Below, one piece after another: positions 139 through 29,644 of a DNA stretch of 32,584 nt. Made by a program: the position numbers and the translations under genes. Within the stretch, counting starts at the first letter, position 1. The number at the start of each line of letters is the position of its first letter. Location: positions 1 through 32,584 of the forward strand of contig JACQKW010000003.1 of assembly GCA_016204385.1 (NCBI GenBank), given 5' to 3'. Origin of the DNA: Candidatus Liptonbacteria bacterium (GTDB taxonomy: Bacteria; Patescibacteriota; Minisyncoccia; UBA6257; 2-01-FULL-56-20). The notes below the pieces were generated by a model. The model was given only the letters and a program-made list of their open reading frames with translations, was not told the DNA's origin and did no database searches.

Positions 139-142
139 TTAG

Positions 143-213
143 CTGCCGGGCAGGGATTCGAACCCCGATAAATACCTTCAAAGGGTACTGTCCTACCATT
201 AGACGACCCGGCA
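143..213 (-). tRNA. tRNA-Gln(TTG)
   Basis: Minus strand folds as a cloverleaf: acceptor TGCCGGG/CCCGGCA, D-loop AATGGT, anticodon arm GTACC-CTTTGAA-GGTAT, T-loop TTCGAAT, discriminator G; CCA not encoded. Confidence 0.95.
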
Positions 214-6087: not shown

Positions 6088-6165
6088 GATACCAATATAC
6101 GAATTGTACTAATGATACGAATGAACATTATTTGTATCATTCGCATGCATTAGTATATTGGTATC
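6088..6165. repeat. Long imperfect hairpin built of TACGAAT/ATTCGTA-like periodic units
   Basis: GATACCAATATACGAAT...ATTAGTATATTGGTATC inverted arms between divergent rpmA and exonuclease gene. Confidence 0.7.
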
Positions 6166-6173
6166 GCATAATT

Positions 6174-6893
6174 ATGTCAATTTCTCAAAAACTCGTGCTC
6201 GACATCGAAACCGTCGGAGAGGATTTCGATTCCTTGGATAAGGCGACGCAGGAATCACTCACACGGTGGATCAAGCGCGAGTCCGCGGATGACGAAGAAT
6301 ACAAGATCGCGCTTGAGGACTTGAAGAATGGTCTCGGATTTTCGCCACTCACCGCAGAAATAGTCGCGATCGGAATGCTTGATTACCACAAAAACGAAGG
6401 CGCGGTCTACTTTCAGGCGCCCGGCGAAAAGCTCGAGGAAACCAAGGAAGAGGGGATAACCTTCAAGCCGATGGCAGAGAAAGAAATGCTCGAGAAATTC
6501 TGGGACGCGGCGAAACACTATCAGGTGTTCATCACGTTCAATGGCCGCGGTTTCGACGTGCCGTTTTTGATGATCCGTTCCGCAGTACACGGCATCCGGC
6601 CGACCAAAGACCTCCTCCGCGGCCGATACCTCTACCAGCATAACCCCGATGCGCTCCATATTGATCTTCTGGAACAGCTTACGTTCTACGGCGCGACACG
6701 GCGGAAGGGAAGTTTGCACCTCTGGACACGGTCATTCGGCATCCTAAGCCCCAAGGCAAGCGGGGTGACCGGCGACGACGTAGGGCCTTTATTCAAAAAG
6801 AAGAAATATCTCGAGATTGCGAAATACAATGTGGGCGATCTCCGCGCCACGCGGGCACTCTATGAGAAGTGGGAAACATATTTGCGGTTTTAG
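6174..6893 (+). CDS. DEDD 3'-5' exonuclease, PolB-exo/RNase H-like
   Basis: LVLDIET (ExoI), TFNGRGFDVPFL (ExoII), YNVGD (ExoIII). Confidence 0.88.
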   Translation: MSISQKLVLDIETVGEDFDSLDKATQESLTRWIKRESADDEEYKIALEDLKNGLGFSPLTAEIVAIGMLDYHKNEGAVYFQAPGEKLEETKEEGITFKPMAEKEMLEKFWDAAKHYQVFITFNGRGFDVPFLMIRSAVHGIRPTKDLLRGRYLYQHNPDALHIDLLEQLTFYGATRRKGSLHLWTRSFGILSPKASGVTGDDVGPLFKKKKYLEIAKYNVGDLRATRALYEKWETYLRF

Positions 6894-7313: not shown

Positions 7314-7343
7314 ATGATATACCCGGCCAAAAAACCCTGTCAA
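7314..7343 (-). promoter_or_regulatory. Sigma70-like promoter of candidate sRNA
   Basis: TTGACA (7343-7338, overlapping copZ stop)-18 nt-TATCAT (7319-7314). Confidence 0.55.
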
Positions 7344-7546
7344 GAGGCCGTATATCCCAAATCCGCAATTGCTTTCACGATGTCTTCCTTTTTTACCTTC
7401 GCGGGATCGAATTCGAACGTTCCCTTCTTATCGTCGTAGCTTACTTCGGCTGATTTCACGCCGCCCATCTGCGACGCGAGCATCTGTATCCCCACGGCGC
7501 AGGAACCGCAATGCATTCCGTCTATCTTTAACGTAAGTTTCTCCAT
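7340..7546 (-). CDS. copZ: Copper chaperone (single HMA domain)
   Basis: IDGMHCGSC motif, C-terminal IADLGY; follows P1B ATPase. Confidence 0.9.
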   Translation of the reverse strand: MEKLTLKIDGMHCGSCAVGIQMLASQMGGVKSAEVSYDDKKGTFEFDPAKVKKEDIVKAIADLGYTAS

Positions 7547-7553
7547 AGAAATA

Positions 7554-7694
7554 TTATAAGACGGAATGCACTTCGGGCAAAAGGGGGTCCCGCCTCTGTC
7601 CCGCCACCGCGGGACTACGGACGGGCAAGCGGGGAAAAGGTTTGTTTTCCCGGTGTCTGAAGACCCCGCCTCCGGCGGGGGCGTTAGAAACCAT
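7554..7694 (-). repeat. GACAC-hairpin-GACCC element copy E1 with antisense copy of copZ GMHC codons; open throughout as a 46-aa ORF
   Basis: 7653-7692 matches 10238-10277 at 37/40 nt; 7559-7570 is the exact reverse complement of 7512-7523. Confidence 0.75.
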
Positions 7695-7699
7695 TGAAT

Positions 7700-10171
7700 C
7701 TACGCCTTTTTCTCCATCGGCGGCGTGTAGCGCCGAAGCAAAAGCGAATTCGTGACGACCGACACAGAACTTAGCGCCATCGCAAATCCGGCGATCTCGG
7801 GCCGCAAGGTCGCCTGCGAGAGATTGAAGAAAATCTGCCCGATGCCGGAACCGAGCGCATTGCGCGCGGCGAGTATCCAGTCTGACGGCACGCCGAAGGA
7901 CGATTGCGTGAGAAGCAAATGAATGCCTCCCGCAATCGGTATCGCGATGATGTTGTAGATGAACGCCCAGAAGAGATTTTGCCACACCTTCTTGATGGTC
8001 TTTTTGGAAAGCTGGATCGCGGTGACCACGTCGCGGAGGTCATCCTTGACCAAAATCACTTCTCCGGTCTCGATCGCTACGTCCGTGCCCGAACCGATGG
8101 CGATGCCCACCTCCGCCTGCGCGAGGGCAGGGGAGTCGTTGATGCCGTCGCCAACCATCGCAACTTTTTTACCCTCCGCTTGGAGTTTTTTCACGACGTC
8201 CGCTTTCTGCTGGGGCAAAACCTGCGCGAGATAGCGGTCAATGCCAAGTTGGTGCGAAATTGCCTCGGCGGTTTTGGGGTTATCGCCCGTGATCATGATA
8301 ATTTCCTTGCCCATTTTCTTTAATCCCTCTATCGCCTCATGCGCGTGAGGTTTCAAAGTATCCGCGAGCGCGAGAATGCCGATAATTTTCTTCTCTGACG
8401 CCAAAAATACGACGGTTTTCGCCTCTCTCTGTAATTTTTCCACATCCACCTCGAATTCCTTGATATCCATTCCCAAACTTTCAACGAACGCGCTGTTGCC
8501 GATATGCACTTCCTTGTTCCCGATTTTTCCCTTCACGCCCAAACCCGCCACCGCCTCGAAATCGGTCACTTTGGGGAGCTCGCCGATCTCCGCTTTCGCT
8601 TTCTCCACGATCGCGCGCGCAAGCGGATGTTCGGAGCCCGTCTCAAGCGCGCCTGCAATCGCAAGCGCATCTTTTTTATTCATATCCCCAACCACCATAA
8701 AATCGGTGACGTTTGGCTTCCCGATCGTGAGCGTCCCCGTCTTGTCAAATGCAACGGTCGTAATTCTGTATGATTTTTCAAGCGCTTCGCCGCCCTTGAG
8801 AATTATGCCGAAATTGGTCGCGCGGCCGATGCCCACGATGAGCGCTGTGGGCGTGGCTAACCCCAAAGCGCAGGGGCAAGAGATCACCAAGACCGCGATC
8901 ATGCGGAGGAGGCCCGCACGGAAGGGGAGACCTGCCCCGAAATACCACCCCGCAAAGACCGCGATCGAGAGCAGGACCACGGCGGGCACGAAGTATTCGC
9001 TGATTTTGTCCACAAGATTCTCGATAGGCGCTCGCGACGCCTGCGCTTCCTCCACCATCCGCACCACCTGATAGAGGAACGTGTCTTTGCCGACCTTCGT
9101 TGCTTTGAAGGTTATCAAACCCTCCTGATTGATGGATGCGCCGATCACTTCGTCGCCCACGGTTTTCGAGACCGGATACGACTCGCCGGTCACCACTTTC
9201 TCGTCAATGTGGCTTTTTCCTTCGGTGATCATCCCGTCCACGGGGATCTTTTCGCCCGGCCGGACCACGATAAGGTCGCCTTCCTTAAGCTGGTCTACGG
9301 GCACAAGCTCTTCTTTACCGCCCTTCAGAACATGCGCCTCTTTTGCCTCGAGTTTCAAGAGTTCTTTGATGGCGTTCGATGCCCTTCCCTTTGCGCGCGC
9401 TTCGAGAAATCTTCCGAGGAGAATGAATGACAGAAGCGCCGCCGAGGACTCCCAGAACGGGTGGTCAATGTTAAAGAAAAGAAATCCGATTGCCGAGTAG
9501 AAGTACGCGGCAGAGGTCCCTAAGGCGACAAGCACATCCATGTTTGCCGAGCCCACGCGGATGGAGGTGAAGGAATTGCGGTAAAACGGCCACGCAATCA
9601 CAAACTGTATCGGCGTGGAGAGCACCCAGTAAATATAGTTCAGATCTATCCGAAACGGGGGATTCGCCACATTCACGAAAATGCCCGCGATGGCTTTTGA
9701 TGGTTGCGCCACGATCCAGAAAAGGTAATTCGTAAAGAATGAGCCGTATGCGGCAAATCCCTCCCCGGTGAGCGACGGCTGGCGGAGATTCAGAAAATCA
9801 AACAATTCATGCACATGCGTTACGTTGAACATGTGGATGAGCATATAGTAGAGGATGATGGGCGCGGAAATGACGAACGCGGCAATCACGCGGCGCTTTG
9901 CCTCCTCGATCTGGCGCGCTTCTTTTGCCTCCTCGTCCGCGGGCGTCGCTCCGGCTTCATCCGGCCGGATGAGGTCATAACCCAGCTTATTGATAAGCTC
10001 ATCAATCCGCGTGAGCGTGATCTTCGATTCGTCGAACTCGATCGCCACCTTCTCCGCGCCGTAGCTCGTCGTGATGGACGTGATGCCCTCCTGCTTGCCG
10101 ATCAATTTATCAATCAAGACCGAACAGGAAGCGCAATGCATTCCTTTAACTTTTAAAATATATTTACTCAT
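7700..10171 (-). CDS. copA: Cu(I)-translocating P1B-type ATPase
   Basis: N-terminal GMHCASC HMA, TGES, CPC in TM, DKTGT, SEHPLA, GDGIND, YN..IP and MALSS Cu(I) signatures. Confidence 0.95.
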
Positions 10172-10389
10172 CGTTGTGTGTTAAAGGAATGCATTGCGCC
10201 GAAGAAGGGGTCGGGAGGAAAGTATGAAGTTCCTCCCGTGTCGGAAGACCCCGCCTCCGGCGGGGGAGCTAGAAACCCCGCCTTCGCCCAACGGCTACGG
10301 ACGGGCAGGCAAGGGTGTCTAAGGAGTTTTGAGCGGCAGTCGAAAGACGACGCACAATGCATTCCTTTCACCTTGAGAACGTATTTCAT
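10168..10389 (-). repeat. GACAC-hairpin-GACCC element copy E2 between a duplicated copA 5' end and copA; open as a 73-aa ORF overlapping the copA start (ATGA)
   Basis: 10180-10199 is a perfect 20-bp inverted repeat of 10131-10150; 10348-10389 encodes [14 protein letters not shown] versus Cop[16 protein letters not shown]. Confidence 0.8.
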
Positions 10390-10391
10390 AT

Positions 10392-10862
10392 CTACTGGGT
10401 CTCCGAAATTATGCTCCTCACATGCATCTTCCCGATTTGATCAAAATGCCCGCGCTTTTCTCCGGCATATGCTCCGCCCTCCACCACGCCGCCCGGGAGT
10501 ATCGAGCTGTCGCCGCAGGGAACGGAGCAGTAATAGGGGAAATCGCCGACCTGCGTCGCGACAAATTCGGCTTTTATAGTCTGGTTCGCGGGCACCCGCT
10601 GGGAAATGCCGAATGCGTCAATCGAGAATCCGTGGTCAAAATCATCTTCATTGACGACGGTAAGAATAATTTTATCTCCGCGTTCAACCGTAATTTCCTC
10701 GGGGTCGAATGTCCAATGGAGCTTCCGCGCGGTAATTGTAATCTCGCGGACGTTTCCCGTTGTAACCGGCGCGGACTCTTCCGACCGGATAAACGCGGTA
10801 TAGGCGATTCCACCTCCGATGATGACAATTCCTACGATGATGAGCCAAAGGTATTTGTTCAT
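10392..10862 (-). CDS. Membrane-anchored cupredoxin-domain protein
   Basis: N-terminal TM; FDPEEITVERGD, HGFSI, YYCSVPCG...GHFDQ (CuA/COX2-like fold motifs). Confidence 0.85.
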   Translation of the reverse strand: MNKYLWLIIVGIVIIGGGIAYTAFIRSEESAPVTTGNVREITITARKLHWTFDPEEITVERGDKIILTVVNEDDFDHGFSIDAFGISQRVPANQTIKAEFVATQVGDFPYYCSVPCGDSSILPGGVVEGGAYAGEKRGHFDQIGKMHVRSIISETQ

Positions 10863-10925
10863 AAATTCAAAATTCTAATATCTAAATTCTAAACAAATTA
10901 TAAGCAACAAATTCTAAACTCTAGA
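10863..10925. repeat. AAATTCT-type heptamer array (downstream arm of four-helix-bundle gene)
   Basis: AAATTCA AAATTCT AATATCT AAATTCT AAAC...; inverted relative to 11269-11325. Confidence 0.75.
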
Positions 10926-10927
10926 CA

Positions 10928-11293
10928 TTACTTTGATTTCTCTATTATTGAGCCGAGGATTTTCATAAGTTCTGTTGACTCTTGAATAAGCATTTCTTGT
11001 TCATGGCGATTTTCTTCTCCTGGCTCCGCGAGTCTTAGCCACAGCCTACTCTCCTTTGCCTCCTTTTTGGAAATCTTAGCTCGCATAAGAAAATCCTTCT
11101 TACTTAGAGATTCGTTCGCTTCGATATAATTCGCGGCAACAGAACCAGCAGATCGGACAAGTTGCTTGCCGTTTTCGATATTCGGTATGGTCTTCGGCAA
11201 TTTGTTCACGTAATTATTCACACGTTTTGCAAAATTCAACGTTCGTTCCTCAAGATTATAATTGCCTCGTTTGGAATTTGGAATTTCGCCCAT
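10928..11293 (-). CDS. Four helix bundle protein (23S rRNA intervening-sequence protein family)
   Basis: LEERTLNFA, QLVRSAGSVAANYIEA, KKEAKESRLWL motifs. Confidence 0.9.
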   Translation of the reverse strand: MGEIPNSKRGNYNLEERTLNFAKRVNNYVNKLPKTIPNIENGKQLVRSAGSVAANYIEANESLSKKDFLMRAKISKKEAKESRLWLRLAEPGEENRHEQEMLIQESTELMKILGSIIEKSK

Positions 11294-11325
11294 TTGGGAT
11301 TTGTTTAGAGTTTAGGATTTCGGAT
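11269..11325. repeat. Inverted heptamer array (upstream arm of four-helix-bundle gene)
   Basis: ATTTGTTTAGAGTTTAG (11299-11315) is reverse-complementary at 16/17 nt to 10882-10898. Confidence 0.75.
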
Positions 11326-13533
11326 TTAGGGCTTCTTCATCACAGGAACCGTGATATAGCGCTTCACCCCCCAGCTCAGGAGCACGATTGCGATCGCTGA
11401 CCAAATGAGATTGATCCACCACGGCGAAAGGGAAAGCCCGGGTCCTGCGGCCGCCACCTCTACATAAAATTCGGCAGTGAGCGCCTCGTCGGGAGGGAGA
11501 TCAATGCCTTTCGGGCGGAATTGCGCGAAGAGCTTGTAGATTCCTTCCTCGGGGAAGGTGACATGGAATGAAATCTGTTCCGTCGGCTCATGGGAGTGTT
11601 CACCGCCGTTCGCACGCGCGAGCGGAACAATGCCGGGCGCGCGGCTGTGGAGATGGTCGCCGCTCTCGGGATGCGTGTGGATATACGCGCCCCAATCATC
11701 TTTGATAATCGTAAGATGCATATCCGCCGCAAGGTACGGTTCAACCTCGACTGGCGTGCCAAGCACGTCGCGGATCTCGAAGACCAAATCTGCTTCCCGC
11801 TCTTTCACAAGCCGCTCTCCGCCAGAGAAGCCAACCTGATAGTCGCCCACGATTACGTTCGTGAGGTATTCGACACTTTTTTCACTCCGCGGGCCGTCTC
11901 CTTCCACGGAAAACGGAAGGTGGCCAGTCGAGTGTGTCTCGCCACCGCGCCTCACATCAGACCATACCTTGTAGGTACCCGGCTTCTTGAACACATAGGG
12001 CACTGACCAGTAGCCCGTCTGCTGGGGGTGCCCCAGCACCACGTCGGGTGCGGGGCTACCCTGAACCCCGCGTGGTTCAGGGTGGATATGAAAAAATTCA
12101 TTCAGGTCGTCGCGGGCACCAATCACATGAATGAACTTTTCATGCTCAATCTCAAGGTCGGTAACCGGAACATTCCCCGGTTTTTTATTCACAAAGAAAT
12201 CGAGCCGCGCGATGGTCCCCGCGAGGACAGGAACAGGCGTGATATTGAAATTCACCGCAAGGCCTTCCGTGATTTCCCCTTCCTCGTGGTAGAGCGCGCC
12301 GCCGTGCGCCTCGTTATGGCCGTCCGGTATCATGCCGCCCTCCATGCGCATCTCTTCCGCGGCATGCGCCGCAGTTTGGTGCCGAAAGCGAGCCGGCAGA
12401 GCATAGCCGAACACCGCAATAAGGAGGAGGGAAAGCGTAACGAAATTCCAAAAAAGATATGGTAGCGTTCGCCTTGCGGTAGTTTTTTCTGGCGTTTCAG
12501 ACATAGCTTCTACTTCTTTCTTTTTCTTCTTATAGTGCCAGAAAAACGGCAGGATCCAGAGGAACAGCAGGACCCACGTGCCCCACGCAAGCGGCAACCC
12601 CAAGAGCCCCGTGTGGCCCGCAAGTTCCTCCCCGCCGTGGGCATGGGGCGCCGCCGCTCCCAAGCGTTCCGATATGGCTCCCAAAAACCGTTCCTCTTGG
12701 GTAATTTCTTCAAGAAGCGTGTGCTGTCCCGAAAGCACCCACCAATCGTGCGTAAAGAGTCCTAAGACAATAATGAAACCGGCAACGAATACCATGCCCC
12801 AGCCGGTCGCGCGCGAAATTTTTTCCTTGTGCTTCACCAAAGCATTCAGCGCATTCACGCCGATAATGCCCAGGATCGCGAGGAAAAGAAGCGGCAGGAT
12901 GCGGCCGATCGCGTGCACGAAAAAGAGGAGCCAGCCGTAGAACACGTCTCCGGAGACGGCGATCCTCGTGAATATCACGGGCGTTGCGGGGTGGGGGCAT
13001 CCCACGCCGATGTTGCCGAGGAACAATCCCAAGAGAAGCGCCTTGAATACGTCTTGCTGGCGCTGAATGAATCCGGGGAACGCGCCGCTGTAGGACGGCA
13101 TGTGGAAATTCACGAGCCCAAGCTCGCCCAGCGCAAAAAGATAGGCGAACGCTCCGGCAACAAAATAGAGCCAGTTCTTTACCGTCTCGAGCGGGGCGCC
13201 CAAGCCCTCGATCGCTACCTTCCCAACGATCGCAGCGATAACCCCATACATGCTAAGGGTGACGGCCACGCCCAACCCAAACGCGATTGCAATCAGAAAT
13301 CCCTTCGCCGGCCCCTTACCCATCGAGAGAGGCACGATCACAAATGCCAAAGGCAGGGTGCAGGGGAGCACGATCATCGAGAGTCCTGCCGCGAAGCTGA
13401 AGAGATACCATCCAAAGCCCACGGGAGCGGCGGCGCCCGCGCCGAAGAAAAACCAAACTAAACCGAACGCGATAATCGCAAGAAACGCGAAGAGAAATGC
13501 GATGAGAAATTTTTTCGATCCGGATTCTCCCAT
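11326..13533 (-). CDS. CcdA/DsbD-beta-like membrane domain fused to two His-rich extracytoplasmic domains
   Basis: FAAGLSMIVLPCTLP and GVGCPHP TM cysteines; HEKFIHV..FFHIHP and MHLTII..YIHTHP repeats, G.YK.(W/F) motifs; C-terminal TM. Confidence 0.8.
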   Translation of the reverse strand: MGESGSKKFLIAFLFAFLAIIAFGLVWFFFGAGAAAPVGFGWYLFSFAAGLSMIVLPCTLPLAFVIVPLSMGKGPAKGFLIAIAFGLGVAVTLSMYGVIAAIVGKVAIEGLGAPLETVKNWLYFVAGAFAYLFALGELGLVNFHMPSYSGAFPGFIQRQQDVFKALLLGLFLGNIGVGCPHPATPVIFTRIAVSGDVFYGWLLFFVHAIGRILPLLFLAILGIIGVNALNALVKHKEKISRATGWGMVFVAGFIIVLGLFTHDWWVLSGQHTLLEEITQEERFLGAISERLGAAAPHAHGGEELAGHTGLLGLPLAWGTWVLLFLWILPFFWHYKKKKKEVEAMSETPEKTTARRTLPYLFWNFVTLSLLLIAVFGYALPARFRHQTAAHAAEEMRMEGGMIPDGHNEAHGGALYHEEGEITEGLAVNFNITPVPVLAGTIARLDFFVNKKPGNVPVTDLEIEHEKFIHVIGARDDLNEFFHIHPEPRGVQGSPAPDVVLGHPQQTGYWSVPYVFKKPGTYKVWSDVRRGGETHSTGHLPFSVEGDGPRSEKSVEYLTNVIVGDYQVGFSGGERLVKEREADLVFEIRDVLGTPVEVEPYLAADMHLTIIKDDWGAYIHTHPESGDHLHSRAPGIVPLARANGGEHSHEPTEQISFHVTFPEEGIYKLFAQFRPKGIDLPPDEALTAEFYVEVAAAGPGLSLSPWWINLIWSAIAIVLLSWGVKRYITVPVMKKP

Positions 13534-29521: not shown

Positions 29522-29600
29522 CGACGCTAATACGCTAATTGACGCGAATGTCGCGGATGAATCATTAGCGCCATTCGCATGCATTCGTATATTGGCGTCG
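29522..29600. repeat. Periodic-unit hairpin upstream of mreB
   Basis: CGACGCTAATA...TATTGGCGTCG arms; shares CATTCGCATGCATT.GTATATTGG with 6138-6161. Confidence 0.7.
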
Positions 29601-29644
29601 CGTTAAAAACCTCCTAGCAGTATAAAGCGCGGGATAGAAGAGAG

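Follow-up and report, generated by a model that had tools for sequence, protein, structure and literature searches.

A small non-autonomous insertion element of Patescibacteria that probably brings a replacement end to the gene it enters

A stretch at the start of the copA gene (positions 10389–10131, minus strand) was analyzed in a 32,584-nt DNA of Candidatus Liptonbacteria bacterium, referred to here as the window, which was one whole contig (JACQKW010000003.1) of the source genome G000 (605 kb, 15 contigs, 80% complete). Based on the analysis, it was concluded that the stretch was probably a member of a family of small insertion elements in Patescibacteria (candidate phyla radiation) that are non-autonomous and site-specific and bring a replacement gene end with them. 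The anatomy of the element, its copy number, the displaced gene ends, the empty sites of relatives, the tandem and off-target copies and the DNA-type pairing of its conserved part were observed directly. The original prediction of a repeated element that sits at gene ends and has no gene of its own was borne out.

All the parts that had been predicted at the start of copA were located on the minus strand. The stretch opened with a displaced ("old") copA-like start (ATGAAATAC..GGAATGCATTGT, 10389–10352, with the ATG at 10389–10387), which included the old copy of the target, X_old (10371–10352), identical to the live target at 18 of 20 positions. It was followed by the core E (10351–10200), which was 152 nt long, contained four hairpins and matched the covariance model with 79.5 bits (E-value 9e-17). 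The core began with the left end GTCGTC and a small hairpin (10351–10339), continued with the two arms of P2 (CCTTAGACACC, 10324–10314; GGGTTTCTAG, 10278–10269) and a nested 36-nt module GCCCGTCCGTAG..GGCGGG (10312–10277), and was completed by the GC hairpin P3 (10268–10249), TCTTCCGACAC (10248–10238), the stem P4 (GGGAGGAA..TTCCTCCC, 10237–10213) and the right end GACCCCTTCTTCG (10212–10200). Directly after the core, X′ (GCGCAATGCATTCCTTTAAC, 10199–10180) repeated the 20 nt of the copA target (codons VKGMHCA) in inverted form without a mismatch. A 29-nt loop (10179–10151), consisting of an 8-nt spacer and the replacement copA start (ATG 10171–10169, MSKYILK), separated it from X (GTTAAAGGAATGCATTGCGC, 10150–10131), the live target within the intact copA.

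The intact copA was an 823-aa open reading frame (ORF) at 7700–10171 with HMA, E1-E2 ATPase and hydrolase domains. Another ORF of 73 aa (10168–10389, minus strand) ran from the old ATG across the element, and its stop codon TGA overlapped the new copA ATG (ATGA). In a repeat search of the window, X′ and X were 100% complementary over 20 nt at a distance of 29 nt, and X′ was 90% complementary to the upstream copy at 10352–10371. The single-stranded DNA fold predicted for a 251-nt stretch had an energy of −58.8 kcal/mol (z = −7.1), and none of 200 shuffles was as good. Logan contigs from two runs, which may themselves be the source of the assembly, covered 10112–10857 and 10122–10806 with zero differences. 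An assembly artefact was rejected, as the copA stretch was spanned unchanged and no sign of a misassembly was seen.

The covariance-model search showed the element to be one member of a repeat family. At least 13 copies were detected in G000 by nhmmer with five seeds, and covariance model R1, built from ten copies and containing 17 pairs, also gave 13 at E ≤ 4e-4. Of 40 other genera in the order, 27 gave matches to the same model, with 1–15 per genome, and a phylum-wide sample of 150 genomes, searched under stricter filters, gave matches in 11. The hosts of the family were the source genome and related tiny groundwater bacteria. In the runs matched to the window, the depth over the core was ~20 times that of its flanks because the core was held by many organisms. 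Rfam returned solely tRNA matches within the window at the gathering score, and below the threshold the top score in 10100–10420 was 19.6 bits against a cut-off of 139; the element matched no Rfam family. No description of such an element, in Patescibacteria or elsewhere, was found in the titles and abstract openings returned by the literature searches.

Most of the targets were tRNA genes. The oriented set comprised 101 copies, 89 from 26 relatives and 12 from G000, and 59 of them were located at a tRNA 3′ end, with the tRNA on the opposite strand 8–137 nt past the end of X′. The distance from the core to the tRNA had its mode at 56–67 nt, and 19 amino-acid types were represented among the 59 loci. 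In 49 of the 59, 7 nt or more of the T-loop/T-stem recurred as an exact inverted copy no more than 5 nt from the core, and by a hand count this copy extended to at least 12 nt in 26 of those 49, which made it tRNA-specific at these loci. A second tRNA 3′ end was found on the far flank of E at 53 of 58 tested loci, with a score that none of 100 shuffles reached. The displaced copy spanned from the T-loop to the tRNA end and at times 6–9 nt further. The five loci that failed this test included tRNA-Ser of G000, the old copy of which was read as split by a short insert of the CGCTTCGCT type. A terminator-like hairpin of its own was recorded on the old side at 16 of 40 tRNA loci and on the new side at 28 of 40, compared with 3 of 40 controls. 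The same plan was also observed at a tRNA 5′ end (L034), and of the 42 copies without such a tRNA, 20 had a direct repeat flanking the core (z > 6).

The targets in protein genes were all conserved motifs no more than about 80 nt from the gene end. The GMHC codons of copA were targeted in the window and at loci L128/L149, L160 and L145, and those of copZ in the window and at L143, L130, L163 and L101. The DMDA codons of dinB were used in G000, G007 and L304, whereas at L052 the target was the AHID codons of lepA, a motif listed for lepA/fusA. In the case of rpsJ, the last codons were targeted, and the old end (..VAVEIKMV-stop) and the new end (..VDVEIKMV-stop) were both read. The X′ end of the core faced the intact gene in every protein-gene case, and old and new gene ends were present together at copA, copZ, dinB, rpsJ and lepA.

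Further, the reading frames through the element were followed. At seven of seven copA/dinB loci, the ORF from the old ATG stayed open through the core, X′ and the spacer (50–85 codons) and its stop lay in the interval from 19 nt upstream to 5 nt downstream of the new ATG, with a stop/start overlap ATGA in three of them; this count overstates independence, since the loci are related by descent. The other two frames closed within 0–22 codons at the six copA/dinB loci checked. At four copZ loci, the ORF ended 5, 30, 55 and 137 nt before the new ATG. Judging from the sequences, such a pattern would be in keeping with translational coupling, the new start having no visible ribosome-binding site. 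In addition, a core was read through by a NUDIX hydrolase ORF of 206 aa (G000:C7:104948–105568; L002:49–669, minus strand), which stayed in frame along the reverse-complemented core and its hairpin, adding about 41–45 residues between the GG and REx2EE parts of its motif.

Relatives with an empty site were found for both copA and dinB, and displaced duplicates were found at other loci, namely at the tRNA and protein genes described above; both kinds of evidence had been named beforehand as checks of the original prediction. A 258-nt contig of an ~85% identical relative joined position 10171 to 10399, skipping 227 nt and carrying 7 other letters instead, so that the stop of the upstream cupredoxin-like gene came to stand beside the copA ATG. 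Among 80 metagenome copA relatives, the core was located upstream of copA in 4 and in front of copZ in 4, and 72 had none. Similarly, no core was present upstream of dinB in 36 of 37 dinB relatives scanned; among the relatives retrieved with dinB were Patescibacteria and Paceibacteria groups. Taken together, the displaced gene ends and the empty alleles required an insertion of DNA.

Copies were also found away from their matching gene and in tandem. A 5′ fragment of fusA (MPREYPLEKVGNIGIIAHIDA) was found next to a core that lies upstream of rpsL, at a distance of 1.3 kb from the intact fusA, with the 9-nt ATTGACGCG on both sides of this copy. Three successive lepA starts and two cores, the older one truncated, were present at L052, and tandem copies were also recorded at L089 and G006:C14; these arrays could have formed by unequal recombination between the repeats. 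At the last of these sites (L015/L040, G006:C14:1–3347), the tandem unit was 856 nt long and consisted of a core module and a 126-aa cysteine-rich ORF; no tRNA was detected in this stretch, and its small ORFs had no Pfam match.

The segment that separates the inverted copy from the target had been predicted to supply a new gene terminus, and it indeed proved to be a working replacement gene end. The old copA start retained the native stop-ATG junction, the old and new terminators of L047 were separated by compensatory changes, and of 40 differences between the old and new copies in six protein-gene cases, 29 were on third codon positions (hand count). Both old lepA copies of L052 shared a T-to-G change that was absent from the live copy, and AAGCGAAC stood in place of AATCGAAC in the old copies at three tRNA loci. 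Such recurrent changes looked as if the right half of the site beside the core were element DNA. The comparison of old and new copies, together with the displaced fusA fragment, the terminator-like hairpins on the old side of tRNA loci and the better fit of X′ to the new copy, pointed to the new side of the gene end as the one that travels with E.

In 43 of 96 copies, the 12 nt that follow the core fitted a site downstream with no more than 1 mismatch, compared with a mean of 4.7 mismatches for shuffled queries, and X′ fitted the new copy better than the old one in 79 of 96. The variable segment may specify the insertion site, as proposed, but the link seen between the 12 nt and the downstream site was one of correlation. 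The proposed 6-bp palindrome at the center of each target was found as ATGCAT and TTCGAA, but not in dinB (GATATGGATGC), rpsJ or many T-loops (TTCGATT, TTCAAAT).

Across the family, the core was 70–150 nt long. In general, (G)CGTCG.. or TCACG.. formed its left end and a small, variable hairpin came next; P2 (TTAGAAACC/GGTTTCTAA), a GC hairpin that also varied, TTTCCnACAC, P4 (GGGAGGAA/TTCCTCCC) and GACCCCTTYYYC followed in this order. Double compensatory changes were observed in 7 of the 17 pairs of model R1. The two modeled stems of 87 distinct copies gave 1479 cells, of which 1421 were Watson–Crick, 2 G-U, 12 A-C and 44 other pairs, in an alignment that was fitted to the model and was therefore biased towards pairing, though G-U was not forbidden. 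Swaps between AT, GC and CG pairs were frequent. Since wobble pairs were almost absent while such swaps were common, the core hairpins appear to pair as DNA and not as an RNA guide; the data pointed to DNA hairpins rather than RNA ones. A 35–40-nt module (GCCCGTCCGTAG-hairpin-GAAGGCGGG) was nested at two different positions of the core, in some copies only. It was found in the window at 10277–10312 and about 7590–7630, as well as at G000:C6:46720, C10:13749 and C4:194. The module also occurred outside recognized cores and may be an even smaller mobile hairpin.

The following course of events was proposed. The mobile unit would be ~200–300 bp long and would comprise the core E, X′ (an inverted copy of 7–20 nt of the target), a spacer and a replacement gene end reaching from the target to the gene terminus. 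It would enter a short conserved site X near a gene terminus, mostly the T-loop of a tRNA gene. The resident gene end would be displaced to the far side of E and the copy brought by the element would be joined to the gene body, so that the gene stays whole. The element may move as folded single-stranded DNA, in which X′ would pair with X, either to mimic a target duplex, as in integron attC and CTX attP, or to align the cleavage site, as do the guides of IS200/IS605. Strand exchange within X would then be carried out by a candidate trans-acting enzyme. At the 5′ ends of protein genes, translation may be coupled by the ORF that begins at the old start codon, crosses E and reaches the new start.

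Several results weighed against this reading, and the first concerned the enzyme. Enzyme families were searched in 41 genomes, 28 of which have the core; no enzyme was found, and none of the searched families tracked the element or provided the trans-acting enzyme predicted to bind the hairpin. The Xer-like tyrosine recombinase (PF00589) was a single near-universal gene (38 of 41 genomes), but it was not found in G000, in G006, which has 13 copies and is 97% complete, or in G011. Y1 (PF01797) was present in only 10 genomes, all of which have the core, and was found neither in G000 nor in three genomes that each have 13 copies. No core was detected beside the nine Y1 loci scanned (none above 9.6 bits with filters off); five of these loci, those whose ORFs were listed (L362, L364, L365, L367 and L368), contained RAYT-like ORFs of 225–256 aa. 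PF00078 was found in 21 genomes, with a reverse transcriptase not found in 11 of the 28 core-bearing ones, and PF00239 in 19, with a serine recombinase not found in 14 of the 28. The IS110-type DEDD recombinase (PF01548) was present in 2 genomes, G000 not among them, and no genome was over the cut-off for PF07282. Half-elements flanking a gene were not found either, as all 26 matches of the right-half motif in five high-copy genomes were complete cores. The exact core motif was found in no stretch of the viral contigs; a looser motif selected 100 viral contigs, and none of the 80 that were scanned with the model gave a match at E ≤ 0.01. A blastn search with 10125–10395 gave zero matches to phage and plasmid records. 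Movement itself was not observed, the sequence data being assembled contigs.

Other points against the proposed unit came from individual loci. The X′ of L071 fitted the old copy better than the resident tRNA, and at only 1 of 4 copZ loci did the upstream ORF end near the new start. Moreover, near-identical cores at different targets would not be expected if the unit always carried its target module along. Such cores, 94–100% identical and accompanied by different targets and by unrelated X′, spacer and gene end, were observed within G003, within G027 and between G014 and G008; the identities were 100% for L048/L049 of G003, 99% for L022/L089 of G027 and 97% for L078 of G014 versus L071 of G008. 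In addition, the nearest neighbor of a core was in the same genome for 29 of 89 copies, whereas 4.4 were expected. The near-identical cores suggest that retargeting is easy; they may result from frequent exchange or homogenization of cores, or from the target module being made anew with every insertion.

A DNA-guided, reprogrammable insertion would be one form of such retargeting, and we put it forward only tentatively. Here, the element would be folded single-stranded DNA, its 7–20-nt X′ would base-pair with a site near a gene end, a host or other enzyme would cut and join, and a new X′ with the matching gene end would be acquired at each move to a new gene. This would explain why cores of 94–100% identity are located at different tRNA and protein genes, both within and across genera.

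It was also considered, as a clearly less likely alternative to the proposed unit, that only the core E moves and that every insertion produces the direct repeat and X′ from the target, for example, by staggered cuts followed by fold-back or template-switch synthesis. The near-identical cores at different targets agreed with such a model, and the old and new copA starts of L128 were identical at 38 of 39 positions, as on-the-spot duplication would give, which again weighed against a carried gene end. The repeats at tRNA loci were mostly identical, and the old side of L049 had no terminator-like hairpin. However, the spacer beside the new copy was not duplicated in most loci, and in the protein genes the repeat began at the ATG or close to it. 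The concentration of old-versus-new differences on third codon positions, the compensatory changes between the two terminators of L047 and the presence of a fusA fragment away from fusA were also unfavorable to synthesis from the target. Furthermore, the young-looking L022 had a repeat identical at 26 of 26 positions, yet its X′ was imperfect.

We regarded it as quite improbable that the copies were scars, that is, attachment-site arms of larger integrase-encoding islands or prophages which have lost their interior. Displaced tRNA 3′ ends starting from the T-loop are a classic mark of integrase-mediated insertion; the core of G006:C14 lies within the 856-nt tandem unit together with a small ORF, and a large serine recombinase is located 2 kb from the C15 copy. 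On the other hand, the clustering of the core–tRNA distance at 56–67 nt indicated a uniform small unit, and the short unit itself was tandem in L052 and L089. An integrase was not found beside the copies, half of the core genomes (14 of 28) gave no serine recombinase, and strict compensatory pairing in four hairpins is unexpected for protein-binding arms.

The least probable of these explanations, to which we gave very little weight, was a structured RNA, such as a leader, an antisense regulator or a bridge-like guide with a variable arm that pairs with mRNA or tRNA. The multi-hairpin conserved core did show covariation, the copA start was enclosed by a 20-bp stem, and the 12 A-C pairs versus 2 G-U pairs, a point against the DNA reading, could hint at an RNA of the opposite strand with weak wobble pairing. 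Nevertheless, G-U pairs were nearly absent on either strand (at most 14 of 1479 cells). The element was antisense to and downstream of tRNA genes, sense to and upstream of protein genes, and in frame within the NUDIX gene. X′ had the same sense as the tRNA, as seen in the tRNA-Gln copy, and therefore cannot pair with the tRNA itself. The displaced ends and empty alleles require DNA insertion, and there was no Rfam match. The likeness to an IS110 bridge RNA, suggested in the original prediction, was weakened both by the rarity of the IS110-type recombinase (2 of 41 genomes) and by the near absence of G-U pairs from the stems.

Three further candidates were rejected. A retron, a diversity-generating retroelement or tRNA-primed reverse transcription was dropped because of an order of sense and antisense tRNA pieces that does not fit a primer-binding site and the lack of an adenine-specific change. 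A group I or II intron was dismissed, as no matching domains were present and the gene was restored by duplication, not by splicing. A CRISPR-like arrangement of repeat and spacer was considered and dropped.

No known family fitted the element among IS110, IS200/IS605, integron attC, REP/RAYT and Rfam. Integrative elements that target tRNA genes use a tyrosine integrase, and their attP carries the tRNA 3′ end. They share with the present element the crossover in the T-loop, the supply of a new 3′ end, the displacement of the resident end and a block of identity that starts in the T-loop and reaches the tRNA end or goes past it. In contrast, the present element is ~200–300 bp long, has no integrase, uses one core at 19 or more tRNA types and 6 or more protein genes, and contains an inverted target copy and four strict DNA hairpins. 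IS200/IS605 and their gene-less derivatives may resemble it by their hairpins, which in the present element look DNA-type, by an internal complement to the flanking target and to their own end, and by needing no gene in cis. Their complementary segment is 4 nt, whereas here it is 7–20 nt, a gene end is carried, and Y1 has the limited distribution given above, with none in G000.

In the case of integron attC and CTX phage attP, the likeness is that the imperfect long-range inverted repeat could fold into a duplex resembling the partner site, and a single Xer-like recombinase was present in most of the genomes. However, attC and CTX attP have one fixed target each (attI and dif, respectively), whereas the stem sequence of the present element changes with each target. 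The bridge (seek) RNA of IS110/IS1111 also places a conserved structured part beside a target-complementary segment; here, unlike there, the complement is one contiguous 7–20-nt block at the end of the core and is not split between loops, and the pairing is of DNA type. Rickettsia palindromic elements and in-frame miniature inverted-repeat transposable elements are similar as small palindromic repeats tolerated in coding sequence (here, NUDIX and the copA/dinB ORFs), but they are not known to duplicate or replace gene ends or to contain a target copy. Finally, repetitive extragenic palindromic sequences (REP/REPIN) with RAYT should flank a single-copy RAYT gene, which disagrees with the nine Y1 loci devoid of a core.

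Two other copies that had been predicted in the window, at copZ and tRNA-Gln, were real and followed the same order of core, antisense copy, loop and target. The core of the copZ copy (7693–7571, minus strand) lay directly after the copA stop and lacked its left part; the repeat match was 91% over 43 nt, and the GCCCGTCCGTAG module was placed between P4 and GACCCC. It was followed on the same strand by a 12-nt X′ (7570–7559), a 35-nt loop containing the copZ ATG (7546) and the target X (7523–7512) at the GMHC codons of copZ (7340–7546), the product of which was an HMA protein according to the domain search. The tRNA-Gln copy was on the plus strand, and its core (1–73; 36.1 bits with the covariance model) was truncated by the contig end. 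Its X′ (GGTTCGAATCCCTG, 74–87) was followed by a 63-nt loop (88–150) with a terminator hairpin (100–139) and the acceptor 3′ strand of the tRNA, and the target X (151–164) was the T-arm of tRNA-Gln (142–213, minus strand).

Additional features were observed in G000 and in the relatives. The 3′ end of rpsL was doubled (..QRSKYGAKRPKKQ-stop and ..QRSKYGAKRPKA-stop) around a different GC-rich hairpin insert of ~65 nt (G000:C15:9440–9590; L010 ~1040–1190), and the differences between the two ends were mostly synonymous; it seems to be a second kind of small gene-end-rebuilding element in G000. On the same contig, a large serine recombinase (match 6391–6825) was located in G000:C15:1–7960 between ~90-nt inverted copies abutting tRNA-Arg (7886–7960), and this region may be an integrated element. 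Many matches among the copA relatives L101–L180 were 200–1000 nt longer than the 2472-nt query and gave no core match, which suggests other insertions or extra HMA domains. The closest dinB homologues outside Patescibacteria (55–61% identity) were from metagenome-assembled genomes labeled Nitrospira, Nitrospirae and Deltaproteobacteria (L283–L298), a hint of gene transfer. Within the window, a gene of PF05635 (23S rRNA intervening-sequence protein family; 10928–11293, minus strand) was bracketed by an AT-rich inverted repeat (10870–10898, 11299–11327), and many metagenome contigs broke at 10862/10863 and 10896–10899, as at a variable cassette. A repeated 35–41-nt motif (CATTCG.AT..ATTAGTATATTGGTATCG) was present in direct and inverted copies at 772–806, 6088–6167 and 29561–29601.

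If the proposed reading is true, a selfish element of about 200 bases with no gene of its own enters essential, conserved genes of very small genomes, and the entered gene is not harmed because the element brings the lost gene end. It would then also explain many of the tRNA gene fragments and odd short ORFs in the annotations of Patescibacteria and would mark horizontal exchange between genera. The finding of one core so readily at many targets was the most interesting point. A conserved DNA fold with a target-matching segment next to it offers a concrete lead to an insertion mechanism that may be guided by nucleic acid.

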